64,000 nt of DNA from an uncultured delta proteobacterium (GCA_963815255.1 CAWFGH010000005.1:453627-517626), one strand, 5' to 3'; shown: positions 1,045 through 45,096, counted from the first letter of the stretch. Program-made: numbers and translations. The notes: generated from the sequence alone by a model not told the origin.

Positions 1045-2157
1045 TCAACTTCGGCCCACGTCCTTCGCCGGCTTGTCGTCACGCAGGGCCACGAATTTCG
1101 AATGGCGCAGATGGTTGACGTCGGTCCAGTCCGCGTACTCGATCTGCGCGACAAGCTGCGGTTTCAGCCAGCGGCATTCGGCCATCTTGTCGGCGGTCAG
1201 ACCCTGACCCCACCTGCCCTTGTCGCGTTGGGGCAGGTTCGAAAATGGGCAGGTCTTGATTTCGAGCTTGTGGAAACGCTCGAAAACCTTCGCCCGAAGA
1301 GCCGGAACGAAACCGGCCCGGACGCGCGCAACGTAGATGAGGTCGTCGCGCTCGTAATAGCCGACGATGATGGAGTCGAAGTTTTTTGGCGCCGGGACGT
1401 AGCCGCCGATCACAAGCTCCTGGCCCTTGTTGATGCGCATCTTTACCCAGGCGCCGGAGCGCCGGCCCGGCTCGTAGCGACTGTCGCGGCGCTTGGCGAT
1501 CACGCCTTCAAGGCCCTGCTTCCTGACCGCAGCGACGATTTCGGCGCCCGTGGCCTCCAACGTTTCCGAAAAGAGGACGTCGGCCTGCATCAGGGGCGTC
1601 ACCTTGGCGCGGAGCAATTCGCGGCGATGGTCGAGCGGACGGTCGCGTAGATTTTTTCCGGCGAGGTGCAAAAGGTCGAAGGCGTAGAACTGAAGCGCCG
1701 TGGCGGCGTGATTGTAGTTTTGCAGGACGTTGAAGGAGGGTCTGCCGGTTTCGTCGAGAGCGACAATCTCGCCGTCAACGACGCTGCCGTCCGGCAGGTT
1801 CGAGAGCGCATTTGCGATGGACGGAAACCGGGCCGAGAAATCATTCCCATTGCGCGACATGAGCCGAACGCGGCCAGCGCTCTTTATTCCGAGCGCCCGG
1901 TAGCCGTCGAACTTGATCTCGTATTCCCAATCCGGCCCTTCCGGCAGCTTCGCTACGGCCAGGCATTGCATCGGCTCGAAGAAGCGGGCGGGTTGCCGGG
2001 CGCGTGTCTTTCGGATCGTGTTGGCCACCGCGATCAGTGTAGCAGCGGGCTCGGGTCGCCGATGGGGGGTAGCAGGTAGCAGTATCGAAGAGCTAGGTTC
2101 CAACAGACCAGCGACGGAGTGACTTCTCCCGTGGTAGAAAACGAGGTCGAGATCCAA
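1045..2157 (-). CDS. ATP-dependent DNA ligase (LigC / LigD ligase-domain type)
   Basis: 370-aa ORF with nucleotidyltransferase motifs KFDGYR (I), DGEIVALD (III), FYAFDLL (IIIa), LEGVIAKR (IV) and WVKMR (V). The true start is uncertain. Confidence 0.85.
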   Translation of the reverse strand: MDLDLVFYHGRSHSVAGLLEPSSSILLPATPHRRPEPAATLIAVANTIRKTRARQPARFFEPMQCLAVAKLPEGPDWEYEIKFDGYRALGIKSAGRVRLMSRNGNDFSARFPSIANALSNLPDGSVVDGEIVALDETGRPSFNVLQNYNHAATALQFYAFDLLHLAGKNLRDRPLDHRRELLRAKVTPLMQADVLFSETLEATGAEIVAAVRKQGLEGVIAKRRDSRYEPGRRSGAWVKMRINKGQELVIGGYVPAPKNFDSIIVGYYERDDLIYVARVRAGFVPALRAKVFERFHKLEIKTCPFSNLPQRDKGRWGQGLTADKMAECRWLKPQLVAQIEYADWTDVNHLRHSKFVALRDDKPAKDVGRS

Positions 2158-3369
2158 CCCAACGAAAAGTTCGCTTGTATGGTGCTCTCGTTTTTTGACG
2201 CGAAGATTCAGAGCCCCGTGGCGGCGGAGCTCGGATACGGATGCAGTCTTTCCCGCTCCCTTCCTTTCTCGTTAACCGGCTGGGTGCACCGATGGCTTGG
2301 AGATTTCATCGTTGAGCAATTGCAGACCAGCCCGCGAGTCGTACTGACGGCGAAGCAACCATCTTCTAACGCCGGAACGTTCGACGGTGAAAATCAGGTT
2401 TTGGCGGACCGGATCGCTCATTTGCTTTGGGGCATATCGGCGGTTGCTGGCGTGCCGATCTTCAACCTCGGGCGTCTGTTCTCAGGGAGTAACGTCGCCG
2501 GCGAGATCAAAATCCGACAGTCGGCAACAGTGGAGAACTTCTATCGCTCGGCGGGCATGCCTCCCATCGTGGGTCTGCGCGAGCTGGCGCGCGCCGTCAA
2601 ATTCGCTCGGCACCTGGATATCGTGATGCGTCGGAAGGCAGAAAACCCTCGAGCCTATTGGCGACTTGTGAGCGGTACGAATGCGTTTGTGAACGGCCTT
2701 AAGAACAAGGACGACGAAGAACGGCTGCATCACTTCGTGCGCGCAATCGAGTCCTTTCAGCCTGCGTCTGGAAGCAGCCGCCGAGACTTCGTTCGCTATG
2801 CAGCCTGCCTCGTCGCGCGACCTCAGTCGGATTCGGTGCGTAAAACTCTTGAGGAAATGTACGACCTTCGTAGCGCTGCCGAGCATCACCGTCATTTTGC
2901 AGAGCGCGCCCTGCCGGGCGTCGAGGCACCCGAGGAGCGTGCTCGCCGTCGGACAAGGCAAGCGGAGGTCTTGGCGCGGGAGCTTTTTAAGAGATTGGTA
3001 GCAAGCGAACCCGACAGTCTTGAGTTCTTTCGAGACGAGCCTGCGGTCGAATTGGCTTGGGCCGAGCCTCGGAAACTGCTTGGGTCGAGCCATTGGACCT
3101 CGATACCATCTCGTAACTCGGCCGACCGGCCGCTCGCGGCGCACGCCCTTCACCGGCTTGTCCTTACGCGGATGAGCTGGGTAAGGAACTGCTCGATAAA
3201 GGCGCTTAACGGGCAACGAACCTGGCTGACTTGTTCTCGCGACTATCGGTCCACGGTTGGGGAGGAATGGCGTGCCGAAGTCAGTATCGCTTTGACAACT
3301 GGCGATTTCGCTAGACTTAGTCTATTCCGCAGGAACGATCGCAGCGAAGAGTTCTCCTGCCGCTCTTAA
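2119..3369 (+). CDS. hypothetical protein with HEPN-like R-x4-H motif
   Basis: 416-aa ORF. The only recognisable signature is MYDLRSAAEHH (R-x4-H). Its 3' end overlaps the convergent gene 3322..4353 by 48 nt, so the ends are uncertain. Confidence 0.45.
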   Translation: MTSPVVENEVEIQPNEKFACMVLSFFDAKIQSPVAAELGYGCSLSRSLPFSLTGWVHRWLGDFIVEQLQTSPRVVLTAKQPSSNAGTFDGENQVLADRIAHLLWGISAVAGVPIFNLGRLFSGSNVAGEIKIRQSATVENFYRSAGMPPIVGLRELARAVKFARHLDIVMRRKAENPRAYWRLVSGTNAFVNGLKNKDDEERLHHFVRAIESFQPASGSSRRDFVRYAACLVARPQSDSVRKTLEEMYDLRSAAEHHRHFAERALPGVEAPEERARRRTRQAEVLARELFKRLVASEPDSLEFFRDEPAVELAWAEPRKLLGSSHWTSIPSRNSADRPLAAHALHRLVLTRMSWVRNCSIKALNGQRTWLTCSRDYRSTVGEEWRAEVSIALTTGDFARLSLFRRNDRSEEFSCRS

Positions 3370-4353
3370 CACTCCCGAACTCATCGGCAGCGCCACGGAC
3401 ACGTCGGAAGTGAATCGGACATCACTCACCGCGGGCGAAATCGGTCCGTCGATCTTCGGAATTTCCATAGAATCGAAGAACTGCAATGATTGGCTCGCCA
3501 ATTCCTGATCAAAGCACTCGTCCATTGCCTCACTCCAACTGGCTCCTAAGGTCGCATAGAAGATGGCGTCAAATTGCATGAGGAGGACAGGGTCGGCGGC
3601 TAGGAGGCTACGAATATCATCGAACAATTGGCGCAAGGAAAGGCCACCCCCAACAGCTTCGACAAAAAGGGATGCGACAACAAGCCGGGCATTGGAGGGC
3701 GGGGTAAGCTGAACGAGCGAGAAGTGGTGGACACGAAGACGATTGCTACTACTCTTGACCTCAAGGCGCTGCCGGCCTCTCAGGAAATCGACGCGCTCAT
3801 ATGGAAGGCTATGCCAAGCTGCGACAAGCATGCGAGGGTCGTTCGCGCTTCGAATAAGCAGCAACTCGGCCCATAACCCTTGGACTGATTTCTTCGCAGG
3901 CATCGCCAGGGCTTGGAATAGGTCGACGAGCCCAGAAATGGCCCGTCGGATGGCGGCCGCCGTTGGTGTCGCTCCCAACATCGTTATTATGGGGGAGAGG
4001 ATTCGCAAAAAGTGCGGAAACAGCGAGGTGTCGGCACTGGCGCATCTGATAATCGTGAAGGTTCCTTCCTCCTGCTGACCGTTGGGATGACCTATCACAC
4101 ATGGGACTCCGTAGGAGACCATTAGGTTCTGGAGGCGAATAGGCGCCGGCCGGGCAGCGGAGGCAGGCTGGCGCAGTAGCAGGCAAGGCGAGCCATTGGT
4201 ATCCTTTGCGAGACGGTAATTCTGCGAGCCGGGGACAGCGACGGCTGATAGACTGCGCCCCGGCGGCAATTCCCGCGGCAAAATCAAAGAGTCGAACAAG
4301 TCACAAAGGTCCGTGCTCACGATTGGCCTCAACGTTGTTCCTGAACGAGCCAA
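3322..4353 (-). CDS. PD-(D/E)XK-motif nuclease-fold protein (last gene of the Dcm/GHKL/Z1 operon)
   Basis: 343-aa ORF overlapping the Z1 gene end by 25 nt. ERVDF...RLEVKSS gives a D...E-x-K arrangement. Confidence 0.7.
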   Translation of the reverse strand: MARSGTTLRPIVSTDLCDLFDSLILPRELPPGRSLSAVAVPGSQNYRLAKDTNGSPCLLLRQPASAARPAPIRLQNLMVSYGVPCVIGHPNGQQEEGTFTIIRCASADTSLFPHFLRILSPIITMLGATPTAAAIRRAISGLVDLFQALAMPAKKSVQGLWAELLLIRSANDPRMLVAAWHSLPYERVDFLRGRQRLEVKSSSNRLRVHHFSLVQLTPPSNARLVVASLFVEAVGGGLSLRQLFDDIRSLLAADPVLLMQFDAIFYATLGASWSEAMDECFDQELASQSLQFFDSMEIPKIDGPISPAVSDVRFTSDVSVALPMSSGVLRAAGELFAAIVPAE

Positions 4354-6563
4354 TCCTCCGCCATATTCCGCGGGATCCAGACCGCTACGGTGGGAACATC
4401 ATCGGCGATGAGCGGCCCTTGGCCTCGCGGTCCCTGGTCCTTTTGTCTGACCTCGAGGATATGAATCTGAATTGTAACGCCTTGTAAGCCACGCTCCCGC
4501 TCGTCTCCAGGATAAACCATGTCCCGATGCGCTGCGTCGGCATAGTTTGCGCCCTGAAACAGAGTCGGGATCTCTTGGCCATCGTTGACGCTACGCTGAC
4601 GGCTCTCGCCTTTTTTCATTTGGTAAATAATGCACGTCGCATCCGCGTGGTCTTCCAGGTAAGCCTCAACCTGTAACAGCAATCCTGTGAAGAGTTGTGA
4701 GTCACGCACCTCGGTCAGCCGCAGGGGAATCAGCAGTTCCTCATAGGCTCGATGGAGCGGAACATCTTCGGCGATGAGGTGGACCTGCTCTCTGGTCCTG
4801 CGCGGATCGCCCGGCGACTCCGTCCACGACAGTTGTGGAATGAAACGGCGAACGGTATTTCGGTTCGCTTCAAGCAACTCCTGTGTTCCATGAGGGACTT
4901 TTGGCCAAAACCAGTCATCCGAAATAACGTCTTGCCTATAGTCAAGATCCAAAACCTGTCGACGCGTGGGACGAAGGCTAGAATCCAGAAAAAAAGCGCG
5001 ACGCCACTCACTGAGCGGTCGCCCGGTGTCGCGGTGTTCCTGGAGACGCTGACGGATGTCCGCTTCATGCTCGACGTAAAATTGAAATGCATTGCGAACG
5101 CTAGTTTCAAGAAATACGCGGCAGTAGCCGAGATATCTACGCTTGTAACCAAAGAACCGCGCACGCTGCTCCATGGTGTCTGCATTTCCGACACCCATGT
5201 CGCGAGGCATGTACGTCACCGTTAGGCCCTCGACCGTATAGCCCCTGTCCATGGCTTGGCCGCCTACCAGAATCCACGAATAACTGTCCTTCCAATCCGG
5301 CTGGGGTGTCGTCGGCCTGGCGTTTACTTCCAACACCCTGGTGTGGCGGATCGAGTACTCAAGCTCGCTAGCGAGGGCATCAAAAGCAGGAAGATCAGGC
5401 ACCGTGTTCGCGAGGTCTTCGTACTCAGGTCTAAATGTGTCTATAAAGCTAAAATGCTCCGGATGATTTGTCGGCAGGCTAAGCAAATCGATCCAGTGCT
5501 GTCTGATTTGGGTGATCCAGTGATAAAATCCTCTATGGCCCGTCGTCTCGCGTGAGGGATGTACCAGCATCGATCGATTCTTTCGGCCCGATTGCTGATC
5601 CTCCGCGAGCGCGAAGGCAGCTGCCACGCCAAGAAAGAACAATCGTAGAGCCACTATGAGAGACGGCGGCACATCCTGAAGAGGAACACCGCGACCAGCA
5701 ATCTCGTTTGGGGGGATAACGCGTACGAGATTTGGATTTTCTTCGAAAAAAGTCTGACCGCCGACATAGTCAGTGCCCGGAGTCAGCAGTTCCACAAAAC
5801 GTGGCGACAGAACATCAATGATGTTGATAAGTAAAGGCGCCTGCGGGGTCGCTGTATATTGCAAATATGCGTGGTGCGGTAGGTTTTGTCGAATAGTGAC
5901 TAAGCGTTGGTACGTAGTGCTTTGCGCTCCCTGTCCAATGCGCGTGTTGAGGCCCGCTTGATCTGCCTCATCATCAATGACGAGAACAGGTAGTGTTGCA
6001 AGGTCGAGATGTTCGAGAACTCTGTTGAGATTCCTTAAATTGGTGGTGTTCTTGAGCACTGTGACAAGCACAGTCTTGCGACGATGTTGTGGAAGTCTGT
6101 CGTTGCGCCAGTCGGCAAGCACGTCGGCAATACTTTGGCTATCATTCGGTTTGGGATTTCGGAACAAGCGCCATTTACGGTTTTCTTGTAGACGAAGATC
6201 TTGCTCGAGCCGACGCGTTGACTGGTCAAGGAGCGGGTTACTGACCCCGGTGATCACAATCACGATGGGATAGCTGTTGTCGCGAGCCAGAGCTGCTACG
6301 GTCGTGAAGGACATGGTTTTGCCGCTTTGCACATATCCGAGGACCAAGCCGGTCGTTGATTCGGACGGACCATGCGGCGGTATACACTTGCTGAGAATGC
6401 TCGTCGCTTCGGCGACTACGCGTTCACTGCTATCACCATCGAGGTTGAGGTGTCCGACGAGTTCGCGCACCTCAGCACCTTGAAGCGGAACCCACAGGCT
6501 GCCGGGTGGCAGCTCGTCCTGAGGGGTTATCGTCTCGCCGCTACCGGAAATCGTGGAACCCAC
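4329..6563 (-). CDS. Z1-domain P-loop NTPase
   Basis: 744-aa ORF with GYVQSGKTMS (Walker A-like) and VLVIDDEADQAG (Walker B/DEAD-like). A GGAGAG RBS sits in the 13-nt gap after the upstream gene. Overall it resembles the Z1 proteins that accompany Dcm genes. Confidence 0.8.
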   Translation of the reverse strand: MGSTISGSGETITPQDELPPGSLWVPLQGAEVRELVGHLNLDGDSSERVVAEATSILSKCIPPHGPSESTTGLVLGYVQSGKTMSFTTVAALARDNSYPIVIVITGVSNPLLDQSTRRLEQDLRLQENRKWRLFRNPKPNDSQSIADVLADWRNDRLPQHRRKTVLVTVLKNTTNLRNLNRVLEHLDLATLPVLVIDDEADQAGLNTRIGQGAQSTTYQRLVTIRQNLPHHAYLQYTATPQAPLLINIIDVLSPRFVELLTPGTDYVGGQTFFEENPNLVRVIPPNEIAGRGVPLQDVPPSLIVALRLFFLGVAAAFALAEDQQSGRKNRSMLVHPSRETTGHRGFYHWITQIRQHWIDLLSLPTNHPEHFSFIDTFRPEYEDLANTVPDLPAFDALASELEYSIRHTRVLEVNARPTTPQPDWKDSYSWILVGGQAMDRGYTVEGLTVTYMPRDMGVGNADTMEQRARFFGYKRRYLGYCRVFLETSVRNAFQFYVEHEADIRQRLQEHRDTGRPLSEWRRAFFLDSSLRPTRRQVLDLDYRQDVISDDWFWPKVPHGTQELLEANRNTVRRFIPQLSWTESPGDPRRTREQVHLIAEDVPLHRAYEELLIPLRLTEVRDSQLFTGLLLQVEAYLEDHADATCIIYQMKKGESRQRSVNDGQEIPTLFQGANYADAAHRDMVYPGDERERGLQGVTIQIHILEVRQKDQGPRGQGPLIADDVPTVAVWIPRNMAEDWLVQEQR

Positions 6564-6576
6564 ATCGTTCTCTCCG

Positions 6577-8135
6577 TTAAGGCTTCGAGAAGGCGTCTCG
6601 TAACAATTGATTTAGATTGCGTCTAATGGTTCCGTATTGAGGCACTCCGGAATCCCGCGCGGTTATCTCAGCAAGCCCGATCGCCGCGGCGACCCTGGCT
6701 AACGCCTCAATTTCTGTAGAATCAGCACGACAGAACTGCTGCATAAAGGGATGTGCAAGCGACATCCGAACAGTGATCTCGCGGTGAGCGCCGCCGGTCG
6801 CAGGCTTGTCCGCAACCGTAATCCAATCTTCAACCGCGGGTCCAACGCCAACTCGATTCTGATCAACCACTTGGCGCCCCGGTGGTCGACTTCTATTTGC
6901 CGCGTACTCGCAGATTGGTCAGGCGGCGCAGACTCCACCAGTCGCTCTAGAAACGGCCGTGCAAGACTCTGCTGCTCTAAGACGGGTGGGACCTCCTTCT
7001 CGACAGTCTCAGCAACCCGGGTGTTGGCCTTCTCGGCTTCAGCGCGAAGTTCGCGCCGAGCCAAACGGGCGCGGAAGTTCTCCGCCTGCGAAAGCAGCGG
7101 GAGACCCTGTTTCTCAAGCTCGTCATATAACAGTTCGAGAAATGGCTGCTCGTGGTCCTCCCACTTAAAGCCATCTTTAGTATGGCTTACCTCGAAGCCT
7201 TCAAGATGAATTTCGCCGATAAGGCGCTGCCTGCGAAAAGAATTAGCAGCACCGAAGATGAACTCTGGCCGGTACGGGTCGTCAAGACTGCCCTCGATCA
7301 AGCGCTTGCGTCTGAATAGAGCGAGTCCGGCTGTTGAGGTGCTTGCAACATCTCGGAGGGCTGCAAAACCAGACGCTTTCATGCCAAGTCCAAAGTCGAA
7401 ATTGAATTCACGATGCCATAGCCTTGGACTCTCCGTTGGCGTCTTGTAGTACGGGGCAAGCAGGATCTTCGGAATCTCATATCTCAATGGCTCGCGGTTG
7501 AACCACAATTCCATCGTCTGTTCCCGCAAAAAGATCCGGTAAATGCTTGCGAGATGATCTTTGATCTTGCTGCCGGTCTTGGTCTGAAGCTTGTCGTATG
7601 GATCGATTAGCGTTATTTCGGTGAAGTGATCATTGACGCTCGCAGGTTGCTCGTCGACGTCAAGCTCCTCGATGGAGTCCCGCACAATGCTGTCGATGTC
7701 TAGTGAGATCGTACGTTCAGCCGCTTCACCGAGCGCAGATGTTCGCACCTTCCAACGCGGTGCGAACCAGCATGCGGCGCTCTTCATACCCATGCCGAAC
7801 TCGGAGAGTCCTGTGCGATCGTTCGGCAATTCTGCTGGACGAAACGCGCGTGCATAATCAGCTGCGGCAATGCCAGCAGCATTGTCTCTTATCTTAATTC
7901 GGACCTCATCAGAACGCTCTATTTCGATTTCGACTTTGAGCCGAAACTGCTGGCCGTGAAGCTGCTGAAGCTTTTCGCGATTTTGTAGGTAACTTTCAAG
8001 CGAGTTGTCGACAAACTCTGCCATCGCGAACCACGCCTTGTAATTCAGGTGCCGAAGAACGGAGAGGATGCCAACCCCGGGACGAATGCTGACGCGAGGC
8101 GGTGGCACGGCCGGTTTTGCTTCAGTTGGCGGCAT
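6577..8135 (-). CDS. GHKL (MORC/MutL-like, HATPase_c_3 type) ATPase, reading frame broken near 6850
   Basis: The 478-aa ORF 6699..8135 carries GHKL boxes EFVDNSLES, IRDNAAGI and SEFGMGMKSA. The plausible C-terminus (VEDWITVADKP...RMSLAHPFMQQF) continues in ORF 6577..6870 in another frame. Confidence 0.75.
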
Positions 8136-9462
8136 ACCTCACGTGCTCAGCTTCAACGGTTCTGAGAGGGCCTGTCGTGCGCGTCAGAGAACGAGCGGCG
8201 TAAGAGCGTAGTAGGCTTTCGCCAATGAGGCGCACTAGATCACTATTAACGGCATTACCAAGAGCCTTGAAAGCGTTGGTGGATGCGGGCGGTAGGTATT
8301 TCAGCTCGTGAAGGCTTTGGAGACGCGCACACTCGCGAGGTGTCATGTAGCGCCGTTCCCACCCGATGATCGGCACTTGCGTCGTGGTCATCGCGATCAG
8401 CGATGGAGCAGTCGTTGGCCGCTTAATGCGCACGCCTGATGCTCGAAACTGAATCACGTAATCCCAGACATTGCGCTTCTCGCCTTTGCAGTTCCATTCC
8501 AGCTTCTGATGACTCGGTGCAAAATCAAGAATGCGAGGGAGCCAAGGCTTTATCCACTTCTTGTGGCGCTGATAGAACTCACGGTTTTGCTGGATGAAAA
8601 GCACCTTCCAATGGGGAAAGGTCTCTTCGTTGGTACGGGCATAAGAAGGCAAGCCATCCATTCGAGCTGCTGGCTCGAACCATTTAAGTGGGAAGCCGTG
8701 ACTACCTCGATACTTAGTCAGCCTTCTGCTTCCCAGCGCGTAGGGCGTTAACTGCTCGAATGGATATGTGGCTCCGAACTCCATCGACCAGATTGGAAAA
8801 GAAGGCAATTCCTCATCTTTCGGAAATGCGCTGATGAAGGCCTGCCAGACCTGGAGGCATTTCTTAACCTGTGGCGTGATCGCCCTCGCGCCTTTCGGAT
8901 CTTTGTCCAAGACGGCGTTTATTGAGAGGTGCGGTTCTCGCGCTTCTTGCGGCCATACAAAATCCGTCAGCCCGGAGCGGCTTCCAACAATGAACACCCG
9001 CTCACGAATCTGTGGAATGCCGTACTGGTGAGGCGACAAGTGCTTGGTCCTAATATCGTACCCGGCCCTCTGAAGGTCTCGCTTTAGCTGCGACCACGTT
9101 TCGCCTTTGTCGTGGCGCTCCAGATTTGGGACATTTTCAAGAATGATGTACTCGGGCTTGTGATGCTTGAGCACACGAAGCACGTGCGCGAACAAGTCGC
9201 CCCATTTCGGACAATCGAAGCCTTGTTGTTCGCCTGCCTTAGAGAACGGCTGGCATGGCGAGCCCGCACAGAGAATGTGATGCCGGGGAATTCTCTCAGC
9301 AGGTATTGTGCGAATGTCGCCATGCGGACATAAGGCGAAATTTTTTTCGTAAAGCTTCTGCAGGTTCATGTCCAATTCGCTGGCAAATACACATTCGTGC
9401 CCCAGGCGCGCGAGTCCGACATGAAAGCCGCCAAGTCCAGCAAAGAGGTCAATGAATCGCAT
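8122..9462 (-). CDS. dcm: DNA (cytosine-5)-methyltransferase
   Basis: 446 aa with FAGLGG (motif I), GSPCQPFS (IV), ILENVPNL (VI) and ALGNAV (X). Confidence 0.95.
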   Translation of the reverse strand: MRFIDLFAGLGGFHVGLARLGHECVFASELDMNLQKLYEKNFALCPHGDIRTIPAERIPRHHILCAGSPCQPFSKAGEQQGFDCPKWGDLFAHVLRVLKHHKPEYIILENVPNLERHDKGETWSQLKRDLQRAGYDIRTKHLSPHQYGIPQIRERVFIVGSRSGLTDFVWPQEAREPHLSINAVLDKDPKGARAITPQVKKCLQVWQAFISAFPKDEELPSFPIWSMEFGATYPFEQLTPYALGSRRLTKYRGSHGFPLKWFEPAARMDGLPSYARTNEETFPHWKVLFIQQNREFYQRHKKWIKPWLPRILDFAPSHQKLEWNCKGEKRNVWDYVIQFRASGVRIKRPTTAPSLIAMTTTQVPIIGWERRYMTPRECARLQSLHELKYLPPASTNAFKALGNAVNSDLVRLIGESLLRSYAARSLTRTTGPLRTVEAEHVRYAAN

Positions 9463-9928
9463 GGTGGCCTCGTCGGGTGCTGTGAACGAGGCTCTCGATG
9501 GTGCGAGCGGTCCGCTCCGGATCTTGGTGAATGTCCATCTCCCAAATTCGAAGGACAGTCCATCCTTCTTTTTCTAACAATCGGACAGTCCGGCGGTCGC
9601 GACTACGGTTTACCTTTATCTTACGGGTCCAATAGGAAGGGTTGGTGCCGCTTTGAAGCTTCTTTGATAATCGCTGCCAATGTCTTCCGTGCCAAAAATC
9701 TCCATCACAGAAAACAGCGATCCGCTCTTTCGAAAAAACGATGTCCGGCTTTCCTGGCAGCGTTCTTACGTTTTTGCGATAGCGAAGTCCGTGTTTCCAA
9801 AGGAGAGTTCGCAAGAGATGTTCGTGCGCTGTGTCGGTACTGCGCGTCATCCTCTTTGCGTAGGAACTGGCCCGAGATGCCGCTGACAGTCCCTTAAAAG
9901 AGGGAACTACTCTTGAGCTTCCACCCAT
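9449..9928 (-). CDS. vsr: very short patch repair endonuclease
   Basis: 159 aa. GKPDIVFSKERIAVFCDGDFWHG is typical of Vsr. The gene overlaps the dcm start by 14 nt. Confidence 0.9.
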   Translation of the reverse strand: MGGSSRVVPSFKGLSAASRASSYAKRMTRSTDTAHEHLLRTLLWKHGLRYRKNVRTLPGKPDIVFSKERIAVFCDGDFWHGRHWQRLSKKLQSGTNPSYWTRKIKVNRSRDRRTVRLLEKEGWTVLRIWEMDIHQDPERTARTIESLVHSTRRGHHAIH

Positions 9929-10268
9929 ATCTCCACCACCCTCACGCTCACCCCTGCGTCTCTATGCTGATTGAACAACTCGTCCTTTTTGAATTTCCAA
10001 ACTTACCGGACCGCGCGTGGCCAGCTTCTCGCCGCGTATATTTTGCTGGTGCCACGTCTAGCATCGAGCCACGGTGCACCAAGGATGAAAGAACCGTGCA
10101 GCTCTGTCCTCGGTCGAGGTAAACCGAACCTTTCCGCGGTTTCCTCGTCGACGGTTGACGCTGTGCTCTCGTTTTCGATAAGGACTTGACTCATAGCATG
10201 CTGACTGTACACATACCCGGTCTTTTGCTCTTCTTTTTCCTTAATACACCACAAAACGCCATACAGCG

Positions 10269-11150
10269 CTAAATGGCAAGAGCTGACCACAATGAAGCGA
10301 TTCCAAATTTCTCCTTCATAGCCGCGGTCTTCGCCCAAGGCTCGCCGGGCATGGCTGTGATCAGCCTGTTGAAGACGATGACGAACGCACTCCTGACCCC
10401 ATCCTCGGTCAGTTTGGCTGCTTCCTCAGGAGCGAGCAGCGGACGGATGTCAGTCATGAATCGGGGCGCGGCAAGTTTCGCAAACATCCGCTGCTCGGCC
10501 TGAGCACGGCTTACTGGCGTGGCGCCGCCATCGAGATAAAGCCCAAAGCATTCGACCAAGCGCGCCGTATTGAGGTCGTGGAAGGCTTCAAGAGCGTGGA
10601 AAAGGTCGAGCAGGTCGCGTCCCTTGTTCCTCTGCAAGAGCGCACGGAGCTTAGTGGCGAGGAGTTCTTCGCGTGAAAAAGTCGCGATGTCTGCTCCGCC
10701 CGCATACCAGGGGTTTTCGACTTCATAGCGGATCGTTTGCGGGGGATCGAAGGCGTTAATCTCGCGCGTATTGATCTCGACTTTCAGTCTGATGATTCCG
10801 GAGCCGTCCTCAGCCGGCGCGCGAAATCGCAGCTTCGGCGCGGTGTCGCTTTGCTCGAATGCTGCGCGGCCAAGCCACGGCTCGAGCCTGTCGCGGATGC
10901 GATCGAGCACGGGGCCGATGGGGCCTGCCGCCGTGCGGACAAGGTCAATGTCTTCGGAGTAGCGCAGCGGCTTCGGAAGATGGAGCTTGTGGAGCGCCGT
11001 TCCGCCGCGGAAACGCAGTTCCCGCGCAAGCGTCGGATCGGCGAACAACTCCACGAGCGCGCGGCAGATGATGAGATCCTGCTCTACCTGTCGCATTTCC
11101 GCCCAAGGCGCTTTGGCGCTCCAGGCGATGATGTTCATGCTCGGAATCAT
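10269..11150 (-). CDS. abiEii: AbiEii/AbiGii-family nucleotidyltransferase toxin
   Basis: FRGGTALHKLHL and YSEDIDLV NTase motifs. The chosen start (MIPSMNIIAW) gives an ATGA start/stop overlap with the upstream antitoxin at 11147-11150. Confidence 0.85.
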   Translation of the reverse strand: MIPSMNIIAWSAKAPWAEMRQVEQDLIICRALVELFADPTLARELRFRGGTALHKLHLPKPLRYSEDIDLVRTAAGPIGPVLDRIRDRLEPWLGRAAFEQSDTAPKLRFRAPAEDGSGIIRLKVEINTREINAFDPPQTIRYEVENPWYAGGADIATFSREELLATKLRALLQRNKGRDLLDLFHALEAFHDLNTARLVECFGLYLDGGATPVSRAQAEQRMFAKLAAPRFMTDIRPLLAPEEAAKLTEDGVRSAFVIVFNRLITAMPGEPWAKTAAMKEKFGIASLWSALAI

Positions 11151-11983
11151 TCGTCGCGCTCCGGCAGGCGGCGGACAAGGACGCGCCAACGCTTGTCACG
11201 AGCCACGATCCCCGGAGCCAGATCCGGAACAGACGTTAGCGATGGGTCAAGCTCGGTCCACTGAAGGTGCGAATCGCGCTCGAGGAACGCATGCAGTTTT
11301 TCCGCAGGGTCCGGGAGACCTGAGCGGTCCAGGAGGTATCCGGCCCGTTGAACGACGGATCGCTCGAAGGCATTGCAGAGCGATGCCATTTTCCCGGCAT
11401 CGAGCTTGGGACCGAGGTCCGCGAAGATGGTCAGAACATTGTCGATACCGCCGCTCGCCTCGGGATAGCGGAGAAGATCGAGAAGCGTCAGTTCTACCGA
11501 AGAAACCTTCATTTTGCCGGTATCGGTCTTATGGTCCTCGATGCCGGGGGCAACAGCGTTCAGGTCCTTTTTGAAGTAGAAGGTGATTTTCGACCGGCCG
11601 ACTTGGAAGTTCCGCATCTGCTTGTCGGACACGACCTGGAATTCCATGACCGCATGATGCGCGGCCCCATGAAGTTCGGCGGCTTTCAAGAGGCCGACAT
11701 AATAGGGCCGTTTCTCATGACGCATGAGGTCGTCGATGAAGGATGCTGGCGGCGGACTTCCGAAATTAAGGTTCTGGGGCGGTACGATAACGTAGAAGCC
11801 TTGCCTCGGGTTCAGAAGCCGTCCGCGCTTCTGAAGTTTCTCTGCAGCAGCGAGGAAAGCCCCCCGACCTGTTCTGATGGCCGTCTGTGCTTCGTCACGC
11901 GAAAAAACCAGGCGACCAGCCGCGAGGAGCCCTGTGATATAGGCGGACAGGCTGGACCGGGATATGTCTGGTTCATAATACAT
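11147..11983 (-). CDS. abiEi: AbiEi-family antitoxin / transcriptional regulator
   Basis: 278-aa ORF immediately upstream of, and overlapping, AbiEii. The N-terminal region (LVFSRDEAQTAIRTGRGAFLAAAEKLQKRGRL) looks wHTH-like. Confidence 0.8.
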   Translation of the reverse strand: MYYEPDISRSSLSAYITGLLAAGRLVFSRDEAQTAIRTGRGAFLAAAEKLQKRGRLLNPRQGFYVIVPPQNLNFGSPPPASFIDDLMRHEKRPYYVGLLKAAELHGAAHHAVMEFQVVSDKQMRNFQVGRSKITFYFKKDLNAVAPGIEDHKTDTGKMKVSSVELTLLDLLRYPEASGGIDNVLTIFADLGPKLDAGKMASLCNAFERSVVQRAGYLLDRSGLPDPAEKLHAFLERDSHLQWTELDPSLTSVPDLAPGIVARDKRWRVLVRRLPERDE

Positions 11984-15440: not shown

Positions 15441-15570
15441 CACGCGACGGTCGTTCCTTGCGTAGACGGAGTCGAAGTCGAGCGCCGGTATGCCCTTACA
15501 GAGCCCGCTGCGCTTCTCAAGGGCGGGATGCTACAAGGAGAGCGAGTTGCTTGGTTTTCCGAGTAAGGCG

Positions 15571-18500
15571 ATGCGCTGTTCGAAGTGCGGGACGGAAAGC
15601 ACAGACGCTAAGAAATTCTGCGCCGAATGTGGCGGCCCGCTGTTCAGTCGCTGTCCAAAATGCGGCTGCGGAAAACAAGCCTACATCCAAATTTTGTGAG
15701 GAGTGTGGCACCGCACTCGATGGTCACGCGGCATCTGCCGCTACCAGTTCAGCTCAAGCTGCATCAACGACTCCCAATATTCGTGTCACGCCGGAGCAGT
15801 CGGCCGGCGATCCGCTCGACGGCGAGCGCAAGACGGTGACGGCGCTGTTCGCGGATATCAAGGGCTCGATGGAGTTGATGGAGGACCTCGACCCTGAGGA
15901 AGCGCGCGCGATCGTCGATCCGGCGCTGAAGCTGATGATCGACGCGGTGCATCGCTACGACGGTTACGTCGTGCAATCCACCGGCGATGGCATCTTCGCG
16001 CTGTTCGGTGCGCCGGTCGCGCACGAGGATCATCCGCAGCGCGCGCTCTATGCCGCACTCCGTATGCAGGAGGAGATGAGCCGCTACTCCGGCGAAGTTG
16101 CGCGAGGCGGGCAAGCCGCCACTCGAGGTTCGCGTTGGCGTCAATACCGGCGAAGTCGTGGTGCGTTCGATCAAGACCGGCGACGCGCATACCGAGTACA
16201 CGCCGATTGGCCATTCGACCAGCCTGGCGTCGCGGATGCAGACGCTGGCGCCGACCGGCTCGATCGCAGTCACCGAGAGCACTGCGAAGCTCTGCGACGG
16301 ATACTTCGCGTTCAAGGCGCTCGGGCCCGCACGGGTCAAGGGTGTCAGCGAGCCGGTTCAGCGTTTACGAGGTGATCGGGCTGGGGCCGCTGCGTACCCG
16401 CCTGCAGCGCGCGGCCGGACGAGGGCTGACCAAGTTCGTCGGGCGCGAGCGCGAGATGGAGGCGATGCAGGCATGCCGCGGAGCATGGCGCAGGGCGGGC
16501 GCGGACAGATCGTCGCGGCGATGGCGGAGCCGGGCATCGGAAAGTCGCGGCTGTTCTTCGAGTTCAAGGCCACCATCGCGTCGGGCTGGATGGTGCTGGA
16601 AGCGTTCTCAGTCTCGCACGGCAAGGCCAGCGCCTACCTGCCCGTCATCGATTTGCTGCACAGCTATTTCAGGATCGTCGGCGGAAGATGACGAGCGTAC
16701 CCGGCGCGAAAAGGTCGCGCGGCAAGGTGCTCGATGCTGGATCGAACGCTCGAAGACACGCTGCCCTACCTGTTCGCGCTGCTCGGAATCGTCGAAGGCG
16801 AGGATCCGCTGGCCAGATGGACCTGCAGATCAGAAACGGCGCACGCTGGACGCGATCAAGCGAATCCTGTTGCGCGAATCGCTCAATCAGCCGCTGATAG
16901 TGATCTTCGAGGACCTGCACTGGATCGACGAGGAGACCCAGGCGTTTCTCAATCTGCTCGCAGATTCTATCGGCACCGCGAAGATGTTGCTGCTGGTCAA
17001 CTACCGTCCCGAATACTCGCATCAATGGAATAGCAAGACCTACTACACGCAGTTGCGGCTCGATCCGCTTGGCAAGGAAAGCGCCGAGGAGATGCTGACC
17101 GCGCTGCTGGGCGACGGTGCGGAAATGCGCGCCGCTCAAGCGCCTGATCATCGAGCGCACGGAAGGCAATCCCTTCTTCATGGAAGAGACCTTCCAGGTG
17201 CTGATCGAGGAGGGCGCGCTGGTGCGCAACGGCCGCGGTGAAACTCACCAAGTCGCTGAAGCAGCTGAAGATCCCGCCCACCGTGCAAGCGATCCTCGCT
17301 GCGCGCATCGACCGTTTGCCGGCCGATCAGAAGGAGTTGCTGCAGACGCTGGCGGTGATGGGCGAGAAGTTCCGCTCGGCCTGGTCCAACGCGTGACGCG
17401 CAAGCCGACGACGAGCTGAAGCGGATGCTCTCGCGAGCTGCAGCTGGCCGAGTTCATCTACGAGCAACCGGCGGTGGGCGACGCCGAGTACACCTTCAAA
17501 CATGCACTGACGCAGGAGGTGGCTTACAACTCGATGCTTGATCGAACGGCGCCGGGATCTGCACGAGCGCGCCGGCGAGCCATCGAGGAGCTGTACTTCG
17601 CGAGCGCTCGACGACCACCTGGCCGAGCTGGCTCATCATTACGGCCGCAGCGCAAATCTCCGCAAGGCGGTGCATTACTTGGGGCGGGCCGGAAACCAAG
17701 CTTTGGAGCGCTCAGCCTTCTCGGAAGGCCGAATCCTGCTGAGCAGGGGGCTCGAACTGCTCAAGGAACTGCCCGACGACACGCAACGCGTGCGCGAAGA
17801 GATCGACTTGCAGACCGCTCTGGCTTGGTTGTTATTCGCGATGGGAGCCCCTGGCGGATCCGAGCGAGAGACCGCCTATGTTCGAGCAAGGGAGTTAAGC
17901 GAACGGCTGGGGGATAAGGCGAAATTGATCGAGGCGCTCACTTTTCTCTCCAATGTTCGCGTAAACCGGGCGGAACTACACCCGGCGAGAGATCTGGCCG
18001 AGCAGGCCGTTGCCATGGCAGAGCTCGTAGAAAATCCTGGGATAGTGGCCAGAGCTCATTACCAGTTGGGCCAGGTATTTTTCTACCAGGGCGCATACGC
18101 TGCTTCGCGCGAGCATTTAGAACAGGCACATGAACTCTTCGGCCCTGGACCGTATCGAAATTTCTTTGATGCGTGGTATGCGAGATGGAACGCTTACTAC
18201 TTGGTTTTAGTTGCAGCTGTTAGCGGGTATCCGGACACGGCGCTCAAACGAAGCCGCGAAGCGTTATCCGCCGCGAGGCGCTCGTCTGATCCTGATTCTA
18301 TTGGCGTTGCTCTACATACCCACGCCACCCTCATTTGGGTGCTTGGGGACCCTCGGATGGCGCTGGGAACCGCGGAAGAATTGCTTGCGCTGAGCGCCGA
18401 GCACGACATGCCGTTTTTGATGCTGATTGGATCTTGTTGGCGCGGCTGGGCGTTGGCGGCTCACGGACGGGTTGAGGAAGGAATCACGGCGCTGCAGCGT

Positions 18501-18941
18501 GCCCGCGCGGCCTCGGCGGAAGCGGCCCTTGTCCTGCTCATGGTGCTGCATATGTTGGCGGAGGTCTATCTGTGGGGCCGACGCTCCGACGAAGGGCTCG
18601 ATGCAGTCGCTAACGGGCTGGCGCTAGCGCAGAAGACCGGGTCAGGAGGTCTCGAGCCGGAACTGTATCAGATTAAAGGGGACCTGTTATTGCTGCAGGG
18701 CGCGCCTAAAGCTGCGGAGGCCGAGCGGTGCTTCCGCCAAGCCATCCGGATTACGCGAGACCAGAGCAATAGATTGTGGAATTTGCGTGCCACTACGAGT
18801 CTCGCGCGGCTGCTCGCAAAGCAGGGGCGCTGCGACGAAGCGCGCGCGATGCTCGCCGAAATCTACGGCTGGTTCACCGAGGGTTTCGACACCGCCGACC
18901 TGAAAGACGCAAAGGCGCTGCTCGACCAACTAAACGCATAG
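15571..18941 (+). pseudogene. zinc-ribbon / class III adenylate cyclase / AAA (STAND) ATPase / TPR protein, multiply frameshifted
   Basis: Signatures present: MRCSKCG..KFCAECG, TALFADIKGS..STGDGIFALFG, AEPGIGKSRL, IVIFEDLHWIDEETQ, ERTEGNPFFMEE, then a TPR tail ending [25 protein letters not shown]. They are spread over ORF pieces in all three plus frames, needing at least eight frame changes. Confidence 0.8.
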
Positions 18942-29960: not shown

Positions 29961-32900
29961 TTACGGTTTCAGGTCAGCATCCTCCTCCAGACGCCTCATG
30001 AAGCTTTGGAACTCAACGCGGCTGCGCAAAGAGTCAAATTGTGGGTCGTTCTTGATGATCTTCAAGAGCCACGGCCTAGCTCTCGGCACTTGCGAAAATA
30101 TGTACTCGAGCTGTTCCAGCGCGGCATCAACCTCACCGATGACCGCATACGTGCAGGCTGCATTATAACGGACGGTGTGATTGCTGGGTTCCAGTGAGAC
30201 TGCACGTCTGGCCCATTCCATGGCACGTGCGTTCTCACCCTGGTAGACCAAAGTTGCCGCACCAACACCCAGGACTTCAGGCGCATCAGGTCGCTGTTTC
30301 AGAGTTGACTCTATGCGAATTAGAGAGCGACGAGCAGTCTGCCTGCTCAGCTCAGCGCGACCTTGCAACTCGTATACATTGGCGAGCAGCGTCAGAGACG
30401 CAAAATCGTCGGACCGAAGTTCCGCGGCACGTTCTAACAAAGATGCGGCGCGGTCGAAATCGCCCCGGTTTCGGCAATTGATGCCAGAGAAGAAATGCGC
30501 GTCGAACAGCAGTGGATCTAGTTTGATGGCGCGCTCGAATGCGGCCTCCGCTTCGTCGGCACGGCCGCCCACAAAAAGGGCGATTCCTCGGGTAGAGTGA
30601 GCTTCGGCCATGTCCGGCGCCAGCCCAAGAGCCTTGCTGCTGATGGCGAGCAGGTCCGTGTACGAGATTGCGGAGTCTCCGTTGATCCAGAGGAAGGCGT
30701 CGCAATCTGCCAGGCCGGTGTAGGCCCTCGCATACGTCGGGTCGATCTCCACAGCTTTGGTGAACAGTTCGCGCGCCGCTTTCATCGTAGAGGTGCTGCC
30801 CCAGCTTTCGAAGAACTTCGATCGGCCCTTGATGTAGTATTCATAGCCCCTTAGTTCCGATTCGCGACGGTCGCGTTCGGGTGATTTCGGCGACAGGCTG
30901 AGTAGCGCCAAAGCCTGTTGGTAACTTTCTAACGCTTCCATAAACGCGTAGCGCGTCTCCGCTGCCTTGCCCGCCCTCGACCATTCAACAATCGCTCGCT
31001 CAGTCTCGCCCGCTTCGGTCCAGTGGCGCGCGAGGATCTCGGGACGGGATTCTTTAAGAGCGGCGAATTTTTCCTCGATGGTAGATGCTACTAGCCGATG
31101 AAGCTCTTTACGGCGGCTTTTGAGCAGGGCTTCGTAAGCCGCGTCTCGGATGAGCGCGTGTTTGAACAGGTAGTTAGCCTCCGAAGCGCTGCCACGCACG
31201 TAGAGCATCTCTGCGTCGGCCAGATTGCGGAGCGCGCGCTCCAGGTCGTCTTCGGCGATTGGATGGATCGCATGCAGCAACTCGTACGAAAATTCACTGC
31301 CTATGACGGCGCCGAGTTGCGCGACCTCCTTGGCCGGCCCCATTCGATCCAGCCGCGCCATCAACGAGTCGTGTAGCGTCACCGGGATTTCGAGTCGGGT
31401 TAGCTTGGGATTGTCACTCTCGAGCACCGCCCGCGTCAGCTCCTCGATGAAGAGCGGCACCCCGCCGCTACGTTCGACCAGCAACTCTAGTGTCTCCTGA
31501 GGCAACACCCTTTGCGCTGCTACCTGCGCAATCAATTTCCTGGCGTTGCGCCGTCTCAGCCGGTTGAGCGTGATTTGGGTATGGTGAGCGCGGGTTGGCC
31601 ATGGAACCCGGAACTCGGGTCGCGCGGTTGTTAGCAGGAGCAACCGCGCGGTCGCCACTTGCTCGACTAGAACTTGAAGCATCTCTATGGTCGACGGGTC
31701 AGCCCAATGCAAATCCTCGATCGCGAGTACTAGAGGCTGCACTCGGGCATGGCCTACGGCCCACTCGACCAGCGTCGCCAGCAGGCGACGGCGCTGTTGC
31801 TCGGGTGAGAGCCGCAATGATGGATATTTCGCGGGCGGCGGCAGACCCAAGAGAGAAGCAAAGAGCGGCAGAGCTTCTGAGAGGTTGAGTCCGGCCAGCT
31901 TCAGCCTGGGCTCCAGTTGCACGAGTGGGTGCTCTGCAGAGCCCTCGCCGCGCCCCGCAATAATGTTGCGAACATTTTCCACGAAGGGATAAAAAGGCGT
32001 GTTCTGGAACAATGGCGCGGTTGCCGTGTCCACCCAAGTGTGTCGTTCGGCTGCGATCTGTTCATGGAACCGTCGCACTAGTCGAGATTTGCCAATCCCA
32101 GCTTCGCCGACGATTACTACCACTTGACCTTCGCCATCGAGAACACGTTCCCAACGATTCATCAGCAGGCTCAGCTCATCCTCGCGGCCGACGAACGGAG
32201 TGAGTCCGCGCGCCGCTGCGGCAGCTTCGAGCCTTCCGTGCACTCCGCTGGGTTGAATAACGCGGTACAGTCTTACCGACCGATCGACGCCCTTGAGCGC
32301 TGGGCTGCCGCGATCTTCGAGCACGAAGTGGCCCGAGACAAGTAGATGCGATGCATCGGTGATCAGCACGGTGCCCGCTTCCGCCACCGCCTGCACGCGC
32401 GCGGCGATATTGGGAGTGCCGCCGAACACGTCTGCCTCCTTTCCCGCACCGGCGCCAATCACGACCGCGCCTGAATCGATACCGACCCGCGCGGCGAGCC
32501 TGGGCCGTTCCGGTTGCTCGTTGAGTTTGGATATAGCGTCGAGAATCGCAAGGCCAGCATGCACGGCACACTCGGCATCGTTGTCATGCGCCGCGGGATA
32601 GCCGAAGTATGCCATCACGCCGTCGCCGAGATACTGCGCAACGCTTCCGCCGAAGCGCTCGATGGCCTCGGCCGCCGCACGATGGTAGCCGCGGACGACT
32701 TCCCGCCACTCCTCAGGATCGAGCTGGCTGGCTATCTCGGTCGAGCCGACAAGATCGCAGAACAGTACCGTGAGATGCCGCCGCGCGCCTTCGAGTCTTT
32801 GGCGTGGGTCTTCTTGCTCAACGGTGCTGAGTGCGGCTTCGTGCTCGCCTGATCCAACAGTAGCCGTGGGTTGCGAGAGAGGGGCACCGCAGTCACCACA

Positions 32901-33023
32901 GAATCTTTCGCCCGGCTCGCTCGATGCACCACAGGAAGGACACGCCAGCTTCAGCGCCTGGCCGCACTGGACACAGAACTTCCGCCCCTCACGATTGTCG
33001 CTCCCGCACTTGGAACAGCGCAT
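29961..33023 (-). CDS. double zinc-ribbon / class III adenylate-guanylate cyclase / AAA (STAND) ATPase / TPR protein
   Basis: Intact 1020-aa ORF with [67 protein letters not shown] and C-terminal TPR repeats. Confidence 0.9.
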
Positions 33024-34612: not shown

Positions 34613-35944
34613 CTAGCAGGCTGTTGAGAAAATTTCTCTGCGATGTGATCGACCGATGAATTTGCATGGGTATAGTTGAAATAGGCCAGTGGGGTTGCGG
34701 AGGAAGCGGAAGATGCGGGGACATGATCGGCCACAGACGACGATGTTGACGTTGGTGAACCCCGAGAAGAGGGTCCCTGCGAACCATCCGATAAGACTGA
34801 TCAAGGCGCTGGCTGAAGTCGCCCTCAAAGAACTCTCGCCGCTGTTCGAGCAGATGTACAGCGAAGTGGGCCGGCCCTCAATCCCGCCGGAGCGGTTGTT
34901 GAAAGCCTCGCTGTTGATGGCGCTGTATACGGTGCGCAGCGAGCGGATGTTCTGTGAACAGTTGGACTACAACCTTTTGTTCCGCTGGTTCCTGGATATG
35001 AATTGGGACGAGCCGAGCTTCGACCACTCGACCTTTAGCCGCAACCGCGCGCGCTTGCTGGAACACGACGTGGCAGGCGAGTTTTTCCGCACGGTGGTGG
35101 CGGAAGCTCGTGAGTTGAAGCTGACCAGCGATGAGCACTTTACGGTGGACGGCACCCTGATCGAGGCCTGGGCGTCGCTCAAGAGCCTGCGCCCCAAGGG
35201 CGAAAAGCCTTCCGATCGCACTACTCCCGACGACCCCGGCAATCCGAGTGTGGACTTCCATGGCGAGCGGCGCGGCAACGCGACCCACCAGTCGACCACC
35301 GACCGCGAGTCCCTGCTGGCCAAGAAGGGCGCGGGCAAGGAAGCGAAGCTCTGTTACTCGGCCCACGCATTGATGGAGAACCGCAACACCATTTTGATCG
35401 ACTTTCAGGTCGAGCCAGCCGATGGACATGCCGAGCGGCGTGCCGCGCTCGCGATGGTCGCCGCGCGCCTGCCCGGCAGTCGCCGCATCACGGTGGGCGG
35501 CGACAAGGGCTACGACACCCGTGACTTCGTCGCGTCCTGCCGCGCGCTCAACGTCACGCCCCACGTGGCACAGAACCTGGCACGGCCGGGTGGTTCGGCG
35601 CTCGACGCCCGCACCCTGCGCCATCCGGGTTACGCGGTCAGTCAATGGATCCGCAAACGGGTCGAAGAGACCTTCGGTTGGATGAAGACCATCGGCGGGC
35701 TGCGGCGCACCCGCTATCGCGGGCGCCAGCGGGTGCAGATGCATGCCTATCTGGTCGCCGCCTCCTACAACCTACTGAGAATCGCCAGACTCAGTGCGGC
35801 GCCGGCATGACACCGACTCCTACAACCCTGCTTCACCGACCCCTGGTGTTCGAAGCTTTCGCCCAACACAACTAAATCCCGGTGTGTCTGCCACAAACTA
35901 ACGTGAAACTGACTAATCAAACCCTTTCGTCAACAGCCTGCTAG
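34613..35944 (+). mobile_element. IS5-family insertion sequence (about 1.33 kb)
   Basis: Terminal inverted repeats CTAGCAGGCTGTTGA at 34613 and its reverse complement ending at 35944 flank a single DDE transposase gene. Confidence 0.8.
34713..35810 (+). CDS. IS5-family DDE transposase
   Basis: MRGHDRPQTTMLTLVNPEKRVPANHPIRLIK...GRPSIPPERLLKASLLMALYTVRSERMFCEQLDYNLLFRWFL is a typical IS5-group N-terminus. Confidence 0.9.
   Translation: MRGHDRPQTTMLTLVNPEKRVPANHPIRLIKALAEVALKELSPLFEQMYSEVGRPSIPPERLLKASLLMALYTVRSERMFCEQLDYNLLFRWFLDMNWDEPSFDHSTFSRNRARLLEHDVAGEFFRTVVAEARELKLTSDEHFTVDGTLIEAWASLKSLRPKGEKPSDRTTPDDPGNPSVDFHGERRGNATHQSTTDRESLLAKKGAGKEAKLCYSAHALMENRNTILIDFQVEPADGHAERRAALAMVAARLPGSRRITVGGDKGYDTRDFVASCRALNVTPHVAQNLARPGGSALDARTLRHPGYAVSQWIRKRVEETFGWMKTIGGLRRTRYRGRQRVQMHAYLVAASYNLLRIARLSAAPA

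Positions 35945-43265: not shown

Positions 43266-45096
<1,831 letters not shown>

Follow-up and report, generated by a model that had tools for sequence, protein, structure and literature searches.

A MORC-Z1-DUF4420 operon with Dcm and Vsr, predicted to act as a restriction system, in an uncultured delta proteobacterium

A minus-strand run of five co-directional genes, encoding Vsr, a Dcm methyltransferase, a GHKL/MORC ATPase, a Z1 protein and a DUF4420 nuclease, was identified from open reading frame (ORF) calls in a 64,000-nucleotide (nt) stretch of DNA from an uncultured delta proteobacterium (GCA_963815255.1, CAWFGH010000005.1:453627-517626; hereafter the window). We consider it probable that this module was acquired horizontally and is a restriction system, dependent on ATP and protected by methylation, composed of MORC, Z1, a nuclease with a restriction endonuclease (RE) fold and Dcm, with Vsr as an addition. 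The gene content, the motifs, a strict gene order across phyla and an island location beside an AbiE pair were directly observed. The self-marking logic of a restriction-modification (RM) system, put forward earlier in a first-pass annotation of this DNA, is the best reading of the operon, its function being predicted from the tight linkage of the genes. The architecture is not new, as it was described in 2008 (PMC2292703) and found again in 2022 (PMC9523054). It is a genuine defence module, its kind having been described before in two in silico studies, and the family is a worthwhile target for experiments.

The five genes and their products

The five ORFs lie where the first-pass annotation had placed them, and its domain calls, for which it had proposed a profile search, were all backed by Pfam: Vsr (E = 1.1e-23), DNA_methylase (5.8e-64), HATPase_c_3 (2.8e-15), Z1 (2.3e-34) and DUF4420, a putative PD-(D/E)XK family member (9e-34). 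The catalytic motifs reported for each product could likewise be located at defined positions. Most of the tight gene junctions were recovered as described, namely the 14-nt overlaps at 9449/9462 between vsr and dcm (ATGCGATTCATTGA) and at 8122/8135 between dcm and the GHKL gene (ATGCCGCCAACTGA), and the 13-nt gap at 6563/6577 with GGAGAG ahead of the Z1 GTG. The supposed 25-nt overlap of the Z1 and nuclease genes at 4329/4353, on the other hand, arises from the choice of a TTG start. The annotated start is GTG 4320, which has a GAGG ahead of it and is separated from the Z1 stop by 8 nt; the deposited annotation (P0124, 332 amino acids (aa)) and most homologues (~332 aa) begin there. The local G+C content at the operon was lower than in the core genes, as had been noted, with 0.54-0.57 against 0.63-0.71 at 52-64 kb.

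Vsr scored 121 bits against TIGR00632 (3.2e-35), which is above the cut-off of 97.85, and its FCDGDFWHG motif lies at 9686-9712. The adjoining C5-methyltransferase carries motifs I, IV, VI, VIII and X as FAGLGG, SPCQPFS, ENV, QIRER and GNAV, and its catalytic half matched M.HhaI at 1.5e-46, so that a Vsr above the family cut-off and a C5-methyltransferase with motifs I-X stand side by side, as in a Dcm-Vsr pair. In E. coli the order of dcm and vsr is the reverse of the vsr-then-dcm order in the window. Among 50 complete systems, which were used for all evolutionary distances given here, the target recognition domain (TRD) of Dcm (residues 190-380) had a mean distance of 0.43, compared with 0.46 for the catalytic core. 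A TRD that is as invariant as the catalytic core suggests, at the level of sequence comparison, that one specificity is common to the whole family.

The ATPase contains the GHKL motifs EFVDNS, DNAAGI and EFGMGMK, and the MORC-specific S5 motif GhXhhpXXRhl is present as GLALFRRKRLI at residues 270-280 (7296-7328 in the window). The protein also has a long helix and a highly conserved C-terminal domain (...GVPQYGTIRRNLNQLLR). An AlphaFold2 (AF2) model of an intact homologue (P0001, 86% identical, pLDDT 79) matched the GHKL and S5 domains of Hsp90/TRAP1, MORC2/3/4 and SMCHD1 at E ~1e-12, and the match of the MORC protein to MutL in the PDB was weak (E ~0.3). One member of the MORC family in alignment A3 also weakly matched NCBIfam NF050001, the ‘BbrUII/HgiDII family restriction enzyme’ (E = 0.0099), which hints at a link from MORC ATPases to a named restriction-enzyme family.

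The single GHKL gene assumed at 6577-8135 could not be upheld, as this interval comprises 1559 nt, which is not a multiple of three, and contains two ORFs in different frames, one at 6699-8135 (478 aa) and one at 6577-6870 (97 aa). The first frame is real up to ~6839 and the second covers 6577-6838. When ...ELALDP is conceptually joined to AVEDWI..., the resulting protein has 519 aa and can be aligned over its entire length with intact homologues of the same size, at 83-87% identity. In a DNA alignment with nine homologous loci, the window reads GGACCC-GCGG where the homologues read GGACCCCGC or GGACCCGGC, and has one base fewer at 6837-6840. The deposited protein P0008 is the truncated 478-aa form. 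We discarded phase variation and programmed frameshifting at the C-run as explanations, since the run has only 3-4 bases and the full-cover homologues listed were all single ORFs of ~519 aa. A methylation-linked base-calling artefact in a CGCG context was also considered, since three of four indel sites have CGCG nearby, but the genome is GC-rich and this explanation is not claimed.

The Z1 protein shows a Walker A motif (QSGKTMS), a DEAD box (DDEADQ, with a literal DEAD) and a YTATP motif, and the DThhQXuRhFG motif is found as DTMEQRARFFG at residues 462-472 (5148-5180). Residues 47-545 matched the PADLOC model Helicase_II, corresponding to the REBASE ‘Type II helicase domain protein’, at 2e-58, and the protein matched the PADLOC model of MzaC at 9e-20. 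It is predicted to be a double-stranded DNA (dsDNA) translocase. In the restriction enzyme CglI, the Z1 region was assigned by computational analysis to the second RecA-like domain of a superfamily 2 (SF2) motor, and this motor needs its nuclease partner R for both ATP hydrolysis and translocation on dsDNA (PMC4267653, PMC5861437). A PDB sequence search with the Z1 protein of the window returned no chain at E ≤ 1, the C-terminal domain of H.CglI, which is reported as solved (PMC5861437), included.

The nuclease has the residues E152...D178...E187-x-K189 (332-aa numbering), which were invariant in 44 homologues. Its confident AF2 model (pLDDT 88.5) has a beta domain at the N terminus, then a helical linker and finally an alpha/beta core, where E152, D178, E187 and K189 are located on a helix and a beta-hairpin, placed as in a PD-(D/E)XK core. 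A PDB sequence search with the nuclease gave no match. The DUF4420 family comprises 1929 representatives at 50% identity, and nearly all of these are stand-alone proteins of ~330 aa. The nuclease was the fastest-evolving component of the module, with a mean distance of 0.62-0.71 compared with 0.38-0.48 for the ATPase cores, as expected of a restriction nuclease or of a reader. The coordinates of the operon features are given in Table 1.

Table 1. Features of the operon and its upstream region, in window coordinates
Feature	Coordinates	Strand	Remarks
vsr	9449..9928	-	159 aa; T:G mismatch very-short-patch endonuclease; accessory ‘V’ gene of the module
dcm	8122..9462	-	446 aa; C5-cytosine DNA methyltransferase; 14-nt overlap with vsr
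MORC-type GHKL+S5 ATPase gene, prokaryotic	6577..8135	-	519 aa if repaired; interrupted by a 1-nt deletion
Frameshift site	6837..6840	-	One base lost in or beside the C-run; from DNA and protein alignments
DEAD-Z1 SF2 helicase-like NTPase	4329..6563	-	744 aa; distinct C-terminal domain of ~200 aa
DUF4420 (‘NRE’) PD-(D/E)XK nuclease	3322..4320	-	332 aa from GTG 4320; 343 aa from TTG 4353
Intergenic region 5' of vsr	9929..10268	-	340 nt; sole sizeable non-coding gap of the unit

Conservation of the module and comparison with known systems

To follow the gene order across relatives, loci were gathered through the ATPase (80 from the one-genome-per-species representatives of GTDB, plus metagenome contigs), giving a synteny set of 83 non-redundant loci with MORC proteins 50-87% identical to that of the window. 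The loci span Acidobacteriota, Alphaproteobacteria, Chloroflexota, Poribacteria, Planctomycetota, Verrucomicrobiota, Actinomycetota, Gemmatimonadota and others. The Z1 gene was located directly 3' of the ATPase gene in all of the loci with room for it (79/79). Dcm lay directly 5' of the ATPase gene in 75/78, and DUF4420 followed Z1 in 57/74; the complete core of four genes, Dcm-MORC-Z1-nuclease, was present in 51 of 67. Vsr was found in 29/67 loci (43%) at varying positions, being 5' of dcm in 15/67 and otherwise after the nuclease or elsewhere. The five-gene unit that had been expected to be conserved thereby reduces to the four core genes, with Vsr as an accessory. The closest intact relatives examined (L001 and L002, 83% MORC identity) have the same 14-nt start/stop overlap of dcm and the ATPase gene as the window.

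The family is widespread and mobile and occurs in defence islands. Of the GTDB species representatives scanned, 501 or more carry a gene for the ATPase, and a search of a phage collection with it gave no match. An intact homologous operon is present in Methylocapsa polymorpha RX1 (L031, CP136862, around 2.435-2.442 Mb). The core is carried by a plasmid of Rathayibacter festucae (L087, NZ_CP047182, 8428-14514), on which PGAP annotates it as dcm, ATP-binding protein, Z1 domain-containing protein and PD-(D/E)XK motif protein, and also by a conjugative element (NikA-like, T4CP, TrwC relaxase, topoisomerase, ArdC) in the JGI metagenome contigs L004-L006 (8275-14809); in the latter the core is preceded, in place of Vsr, by an HTH_37 gene, which may encode a controller protein, and is followed by a TIR_2 gene and then an AAA_13/SMC-like gene. 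In L001 and L002, a NOV_C (DUF3883) gene and a CBASS-like pair of SMODS and S_4TM lie 3' of the module, which shows the same module in another defence-island context. A copy of the whole operon with 81% nucleotide identity is present at 7556-14161 of contig L088 (ENA ERZ25039468, contig_42508); its MORC and Z1 gene calls are fragmented and the neighbouring GDPD gene is split too, the assembly being indel-rich.

The operon type corresponds to the third type of MORC neighbourhood described by Iyer, Abhiman and Aravind in a purely computational study from 2008 (PMC2292703). That type combines MORC with an SFII helicase of a distinct kind, which bears the DThhQXuRhFG domain, and with a novel RE-fold protein showing an E-D-ExK signature, and it frequently holds cytosine methylases and Vsr (PMC2292703). 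Its gene content is identical to that of the window, where the S5 motif, DThhQXuRhFG, the E-D-ExK RE-fold neighbour, the cytosine methylase and Vsr were all found; the helicase's C-terminal domain was later named Z1, and the ‘NRE’ is now DUF4420. There is no architectural difference, except that the MORC gene of the window copy is frameshifted. Miller et al. (2022) later reported a core of Z1, DUF4420 and cytosine methyltransferase as a putative defence system with ~20% identity to mzaBCDE (PMC9523054). These three core genes are shared with the window, and so are the associations with DNA-repair endonucleases, seen in type I of that study, and with MORC, seen in type II; a similarity of ~20% to mzaBCDE is common to both as well. 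Their Z1 protein has 925 aa, as opposed to 744 aa in the window, and an AIPR gene belongs to their type II, whereas none was detected among the Pfam-scanned ORFs of the window, both immediate flanks of the operon included.

The first-pass annotation had also named a link to the Mza clusters, which proved to be real. The gene order of Mza, with a GHKL ATPase followed by a Z1 protein and then a PD-(D/E)XK protein, is that of the window module, and the MzaB, MzaC and MzaD models match the ATPase, the Z1 protein and the nuclease, respectively, in that order. Across the family, the NCBIfam models NF041932-4 matched 28 of 46 members for MzaB and 36 of 44 for MzaD, and MzaC matched at 1e-25. However, the window proteins reached 20.1 of 850 bits for MzaB, 89.8 of 1500 for MzaC and 17.6 of 420 for MzaD relative to the curated cut-offs. 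The proposed PADLOC check returned no match for the ATPase and the nuclease, and neither the sigma-factor-like MzaA nor MzaE (AIPR) was matched among the operon neighbours by Pfam or PADLOC. Mza also lacks a methyltransferase, unlike the window module with its Dcm and Vsr. As the scores are far below the cut-offs, MzaA and AIPR are missing and PADLOC is silent on the ATPase and the nuclease, the module is by its sequence a relative of Mza and not a member. PMC9523054 calls mzaABCDE a validated anti-phage system, citing Gao et al. (2020).

Another point of comparison is provided by the ATP-dependent Type II systems CglI, NgoAVII and BceSIV, which combine a C5-methyltransferase with a DEAD-Z1 ‘H’ subunit, as in the window (PMC4267653, PMC5861437). 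In CglI-type enzymes, ATP hydrolysis and dsDNA translocation by the H subunit activate cleavage (PMC4267653, PMC5861437). CglI/NgoAVII is the only biochemically studied Z1 motor. The Z1 protein of the window is a DEAD-Z1 motor of the kind that defines this H subunit. The nuclease of these Type II systems, in contrast, belongs to the PLD family and has a B3-like reader, while that of the window is a DUF4420 PD-(D/E)XK protein, and no PLD or B3 protein that could represent an R subunit of the CglI type was found in the window operon. The CglI, NgoAVII and BceSIV systems have no GHKL/MORC subunit, which the window module adds. The E. coli MutL-MutH-UvrD and MutL-Vsr systems, an analogy taken from PMC2292703, similarly unite a GHKL+S5 ATPase, a methylation-reading PD-(D/E)XK nickase and a helicase. 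They differ from the window module in that the latter matches MutL weakly, has no MutS-like sensor and occurs in mobile and defence-island contexts.

Proposed mechanism and alternative explanations

In the proposed mechanism, Dcm would methylate a fixed target and thereby mark self DNA, and Vsr, where present, would repair the T:G mismatches that arise from deamination of 5-methylcytosine (5mC). Unmethylated DNA would be restricted by an ATP-dependent complex of three proteins, the nuclease, Z1 and MORC. Here, DUF4420 would be the PD-(D/E)XK cutter and, through its fast-evolving N-terminal beta domain, most likely the reader of the unmethylated site. DEAD-Z1 would translocate on dsDNA and in this way link recognition of the site with cleavage at a distance, like the H subunit of CglI, and the MORC GHKL+S5 protein, dimerising and driven by ATP, would serve as the clamp or matchmaker by which nuclease and motor are licensed, similar to MutL in the activation of MutH and the loading of UvrD. 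Looping and the analogy to MutL were proposed for this operon type before (PMC2292703). In the window copy, either the restriction arm is dead and Dcm and Vsr remain as a functional pair, or the frameshift is an error of assembly.

Several observations weigh against a restriction system of this kind. With its MORC gene frameshifted, the operon copy in the window may not work at all. Foldseek comparison of the nuclease model with the PDB gave nothing better than E = 0.2, that is, no similar solved structure, and the fold was therefore assigned from Pfam, motifs and topology. In ~17/74 loci, DUF4420 does not follow Z1; L068 has an HNH protein at this position and others have no obvious nuclease, so the nuclease may be exchangeable or dispensable. 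As to which protein reads the site, the nuclease is the most likely candidate. A covariation analysis of the 50 systems, in which the Dcm TRD was compared with parts of MORC, Z1 and the nuclease, gave partial correlations of 0.09-0.27 and could not point to the reader because the TRD hardly varies. The mechanism, which had been described as not worked out, is characterised for the Z1 motor through CglI and NgoAVII; for the MORC-Z1-DUF4420 complex the description holds, as no experimental, biochemical or genetic study of such a system was found in the literature.

The explanation that competes best concerns the state of the window copy and not the nature of the family. It holds that the MORC frameshift is real and the restriction arm dead, with the orphan Dcm and Vsr still functioning, and we give it slightly less than an even chance. 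An orphan Dcm/Vsr pair after loss of the restriction arm is a common end-state of RM systems. The shift stands in the deposited sequence, in which P0008 has 478 aa, and it cuts off the most conserved C-terminal 87 residues of MORC. Elsewhere in the island, a STAND gene (15.46-18.94 kb) has likewise come apart, into five frames or more, and the core genes dnaG, rmuC and prmA are clean. However, the 87 residues past the shift are still ~90% identical to P0001, with no sign of relaxed constraint, and the remaining genes of the operon are all intact. The housekeeping gene gshB has three 1-nt indels and yet encodes a well-conserved protein in each piece, which looks like assembly error, and the related soil long-read contig L088 has 49 gap openings over the same operon. 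One indel per 6.6 kb also matches the background of the window, in which at least nine frameshifts were counted over 64 kb. We accordingly lean, by a modest degree, towards an assembly artefact rather than real decay; the copy is either inactive in restriction or mis-assembled.

A methylation-independent defence similar to Mza, in which MORC, Z1 and the nuclease sense infection in another way and Dcm and Vsr form a hitch-hiking or regulatory cassette, is considered improbable. The three proteins are homologous to MzaB, MzaC and MzaD, whose systems have no methyltransferase (PMC9523054), the Dcm TRD is not diversified across the family, which is unusual for a classical Type II RM system, and some loci (L037, L046, L065 and L083) have another type of methyltransferase. 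Against this, Dcm is adjacent and co-oriented in 75 of 78 loci and the 14-nt overlap is kept in L001 and L002. Linkage that stays this close from phylum to phylum is the mark expected of an obligatory protective partner. The related Z1 system CglI is moreover a bona fide RM system (PMC4267653).

A repair module, in which MORC, Z1 and the nuclease as analogues of MutL, UvrD and MutH assist Vsr at the 5mC-deamination mismatches caused by the linked Dcm, would be in line with the weak match of the GHKL+S5 protein to MutL, with the functional MutL-Vsr and MutL-UvrD links and the possible recruitment of some family members to repair (PMC2292703) and with the presence of Vsr in the window and 43% of loci, but it is very unlikely given that the three genes persist in the 57% of loci from which Vsr is absent, that the contexts are those of mobility and defence (AbiE neighbour, plasmid, conjugative element, CBASS-like neighbours), that the HNH protein in L068 suggests a swappable nuclease and that the relatives called Mza are anti-phage (PMC9523054).

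Returning to methylation-protected restriction, it is conceivable, if rather doubtful, that the MORC-Z1-DUF4420 proteins form a class of their own among ATP-dependent restriction enzymes, one that follows the logic of MutL, UvrD and MutH. The MORC clamp would then load at unmethylated Dcm sites, Z1 would reel in or scan the DNA, and cutting by the PD-(D/E)XK subunit would be licensed. The unusually invariant TRD would in that case mean that a single conserved methylation mark is policed by the whole family. If true, such a methylation-reading activity would be ancestral to, and lie behind, the eukaryotic MORC chromatin silencers. The family provides a prokaryotic setting that ties MORC ATPases to DNA methylation, and solving its mechanism would bear on how MORC proteins act on DNA and on restriction that combines two different ATPases. 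The window locus itself adds little beyond one more example, and its frameshift makes it a poor choice for experiments.

Genomic surroundings

The AbiEii/AbiEi pair, a type IV toxin-antitoxin system of the abortive infection type, is located directly 5' of vsr on the same strand (10269-11983, minus). Its two proteins were supported by Pfam (6e-36 and 7e-26) and by PADLOC (3e-98 and 3e-86). The region between AbiE and vsr (9929-10268) is presumed to contain the promoter of the operon; a scan for the sigma-70 consensus found none within it, with a site count no higher than chance. A tRNA-Phe gene (51568-51643, minus) marks the position at which the lower-G+C region ends and the G+C content jumps from ~0.57 to 0.63-0.71. 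The part of the window below ~51.5 kb has the appearance of an island that is large and variable, and it is probable that the module is located in a tRNA-Phe island together with other defence genes.

The gshB gene (glutathione synthetase, 51767-52727, minus) adjoins tRNA-Phe and falls into three frames as a result of its three indels, of which two add a base (near 52483, and in GGCCGCGCGCGG near 52195) and one removes a base (near 51955). Because the protein stays GshB-like in every piece, the sequence suggests assembly errors rather than an old pseudogene.

Mobile elements in the window include an IS21-family element, with its rve core at 43523-44314 and IstB at 44311-45096, and a DDE transposase at 34689-35810. 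The broken STAND gene (15458-18941, plus) encodes a Zn-ribbon, an adenylate/guanylate cyclase domain, AAA_16 and TPR over its reading frames, and is ~30% identical to an intact paralogue of 1020 aa (29961-33023, minus), the cyclase domain of which matches the Pycsar PycC models at 1e-19.

On the other side of the operon, a convergent ORF (2119-3369, plus) extends into the nuclease gene at its 3' end. This ORF gave no Pfam or PADLOC match and has only 12 rare homologues of ~330 aa, so that the 416-aa ORF of the window is over-long at one end; an RSAAEH motif (Rx4H, HEPN-like) was recognised in it by eye only. Two genes 3' of the operon lies an ATP-dependent DNA ligase of the non-homologous end joining type (1045-2157, minus), with the ligase domain of LigD (TIGR02779, 3e-80).

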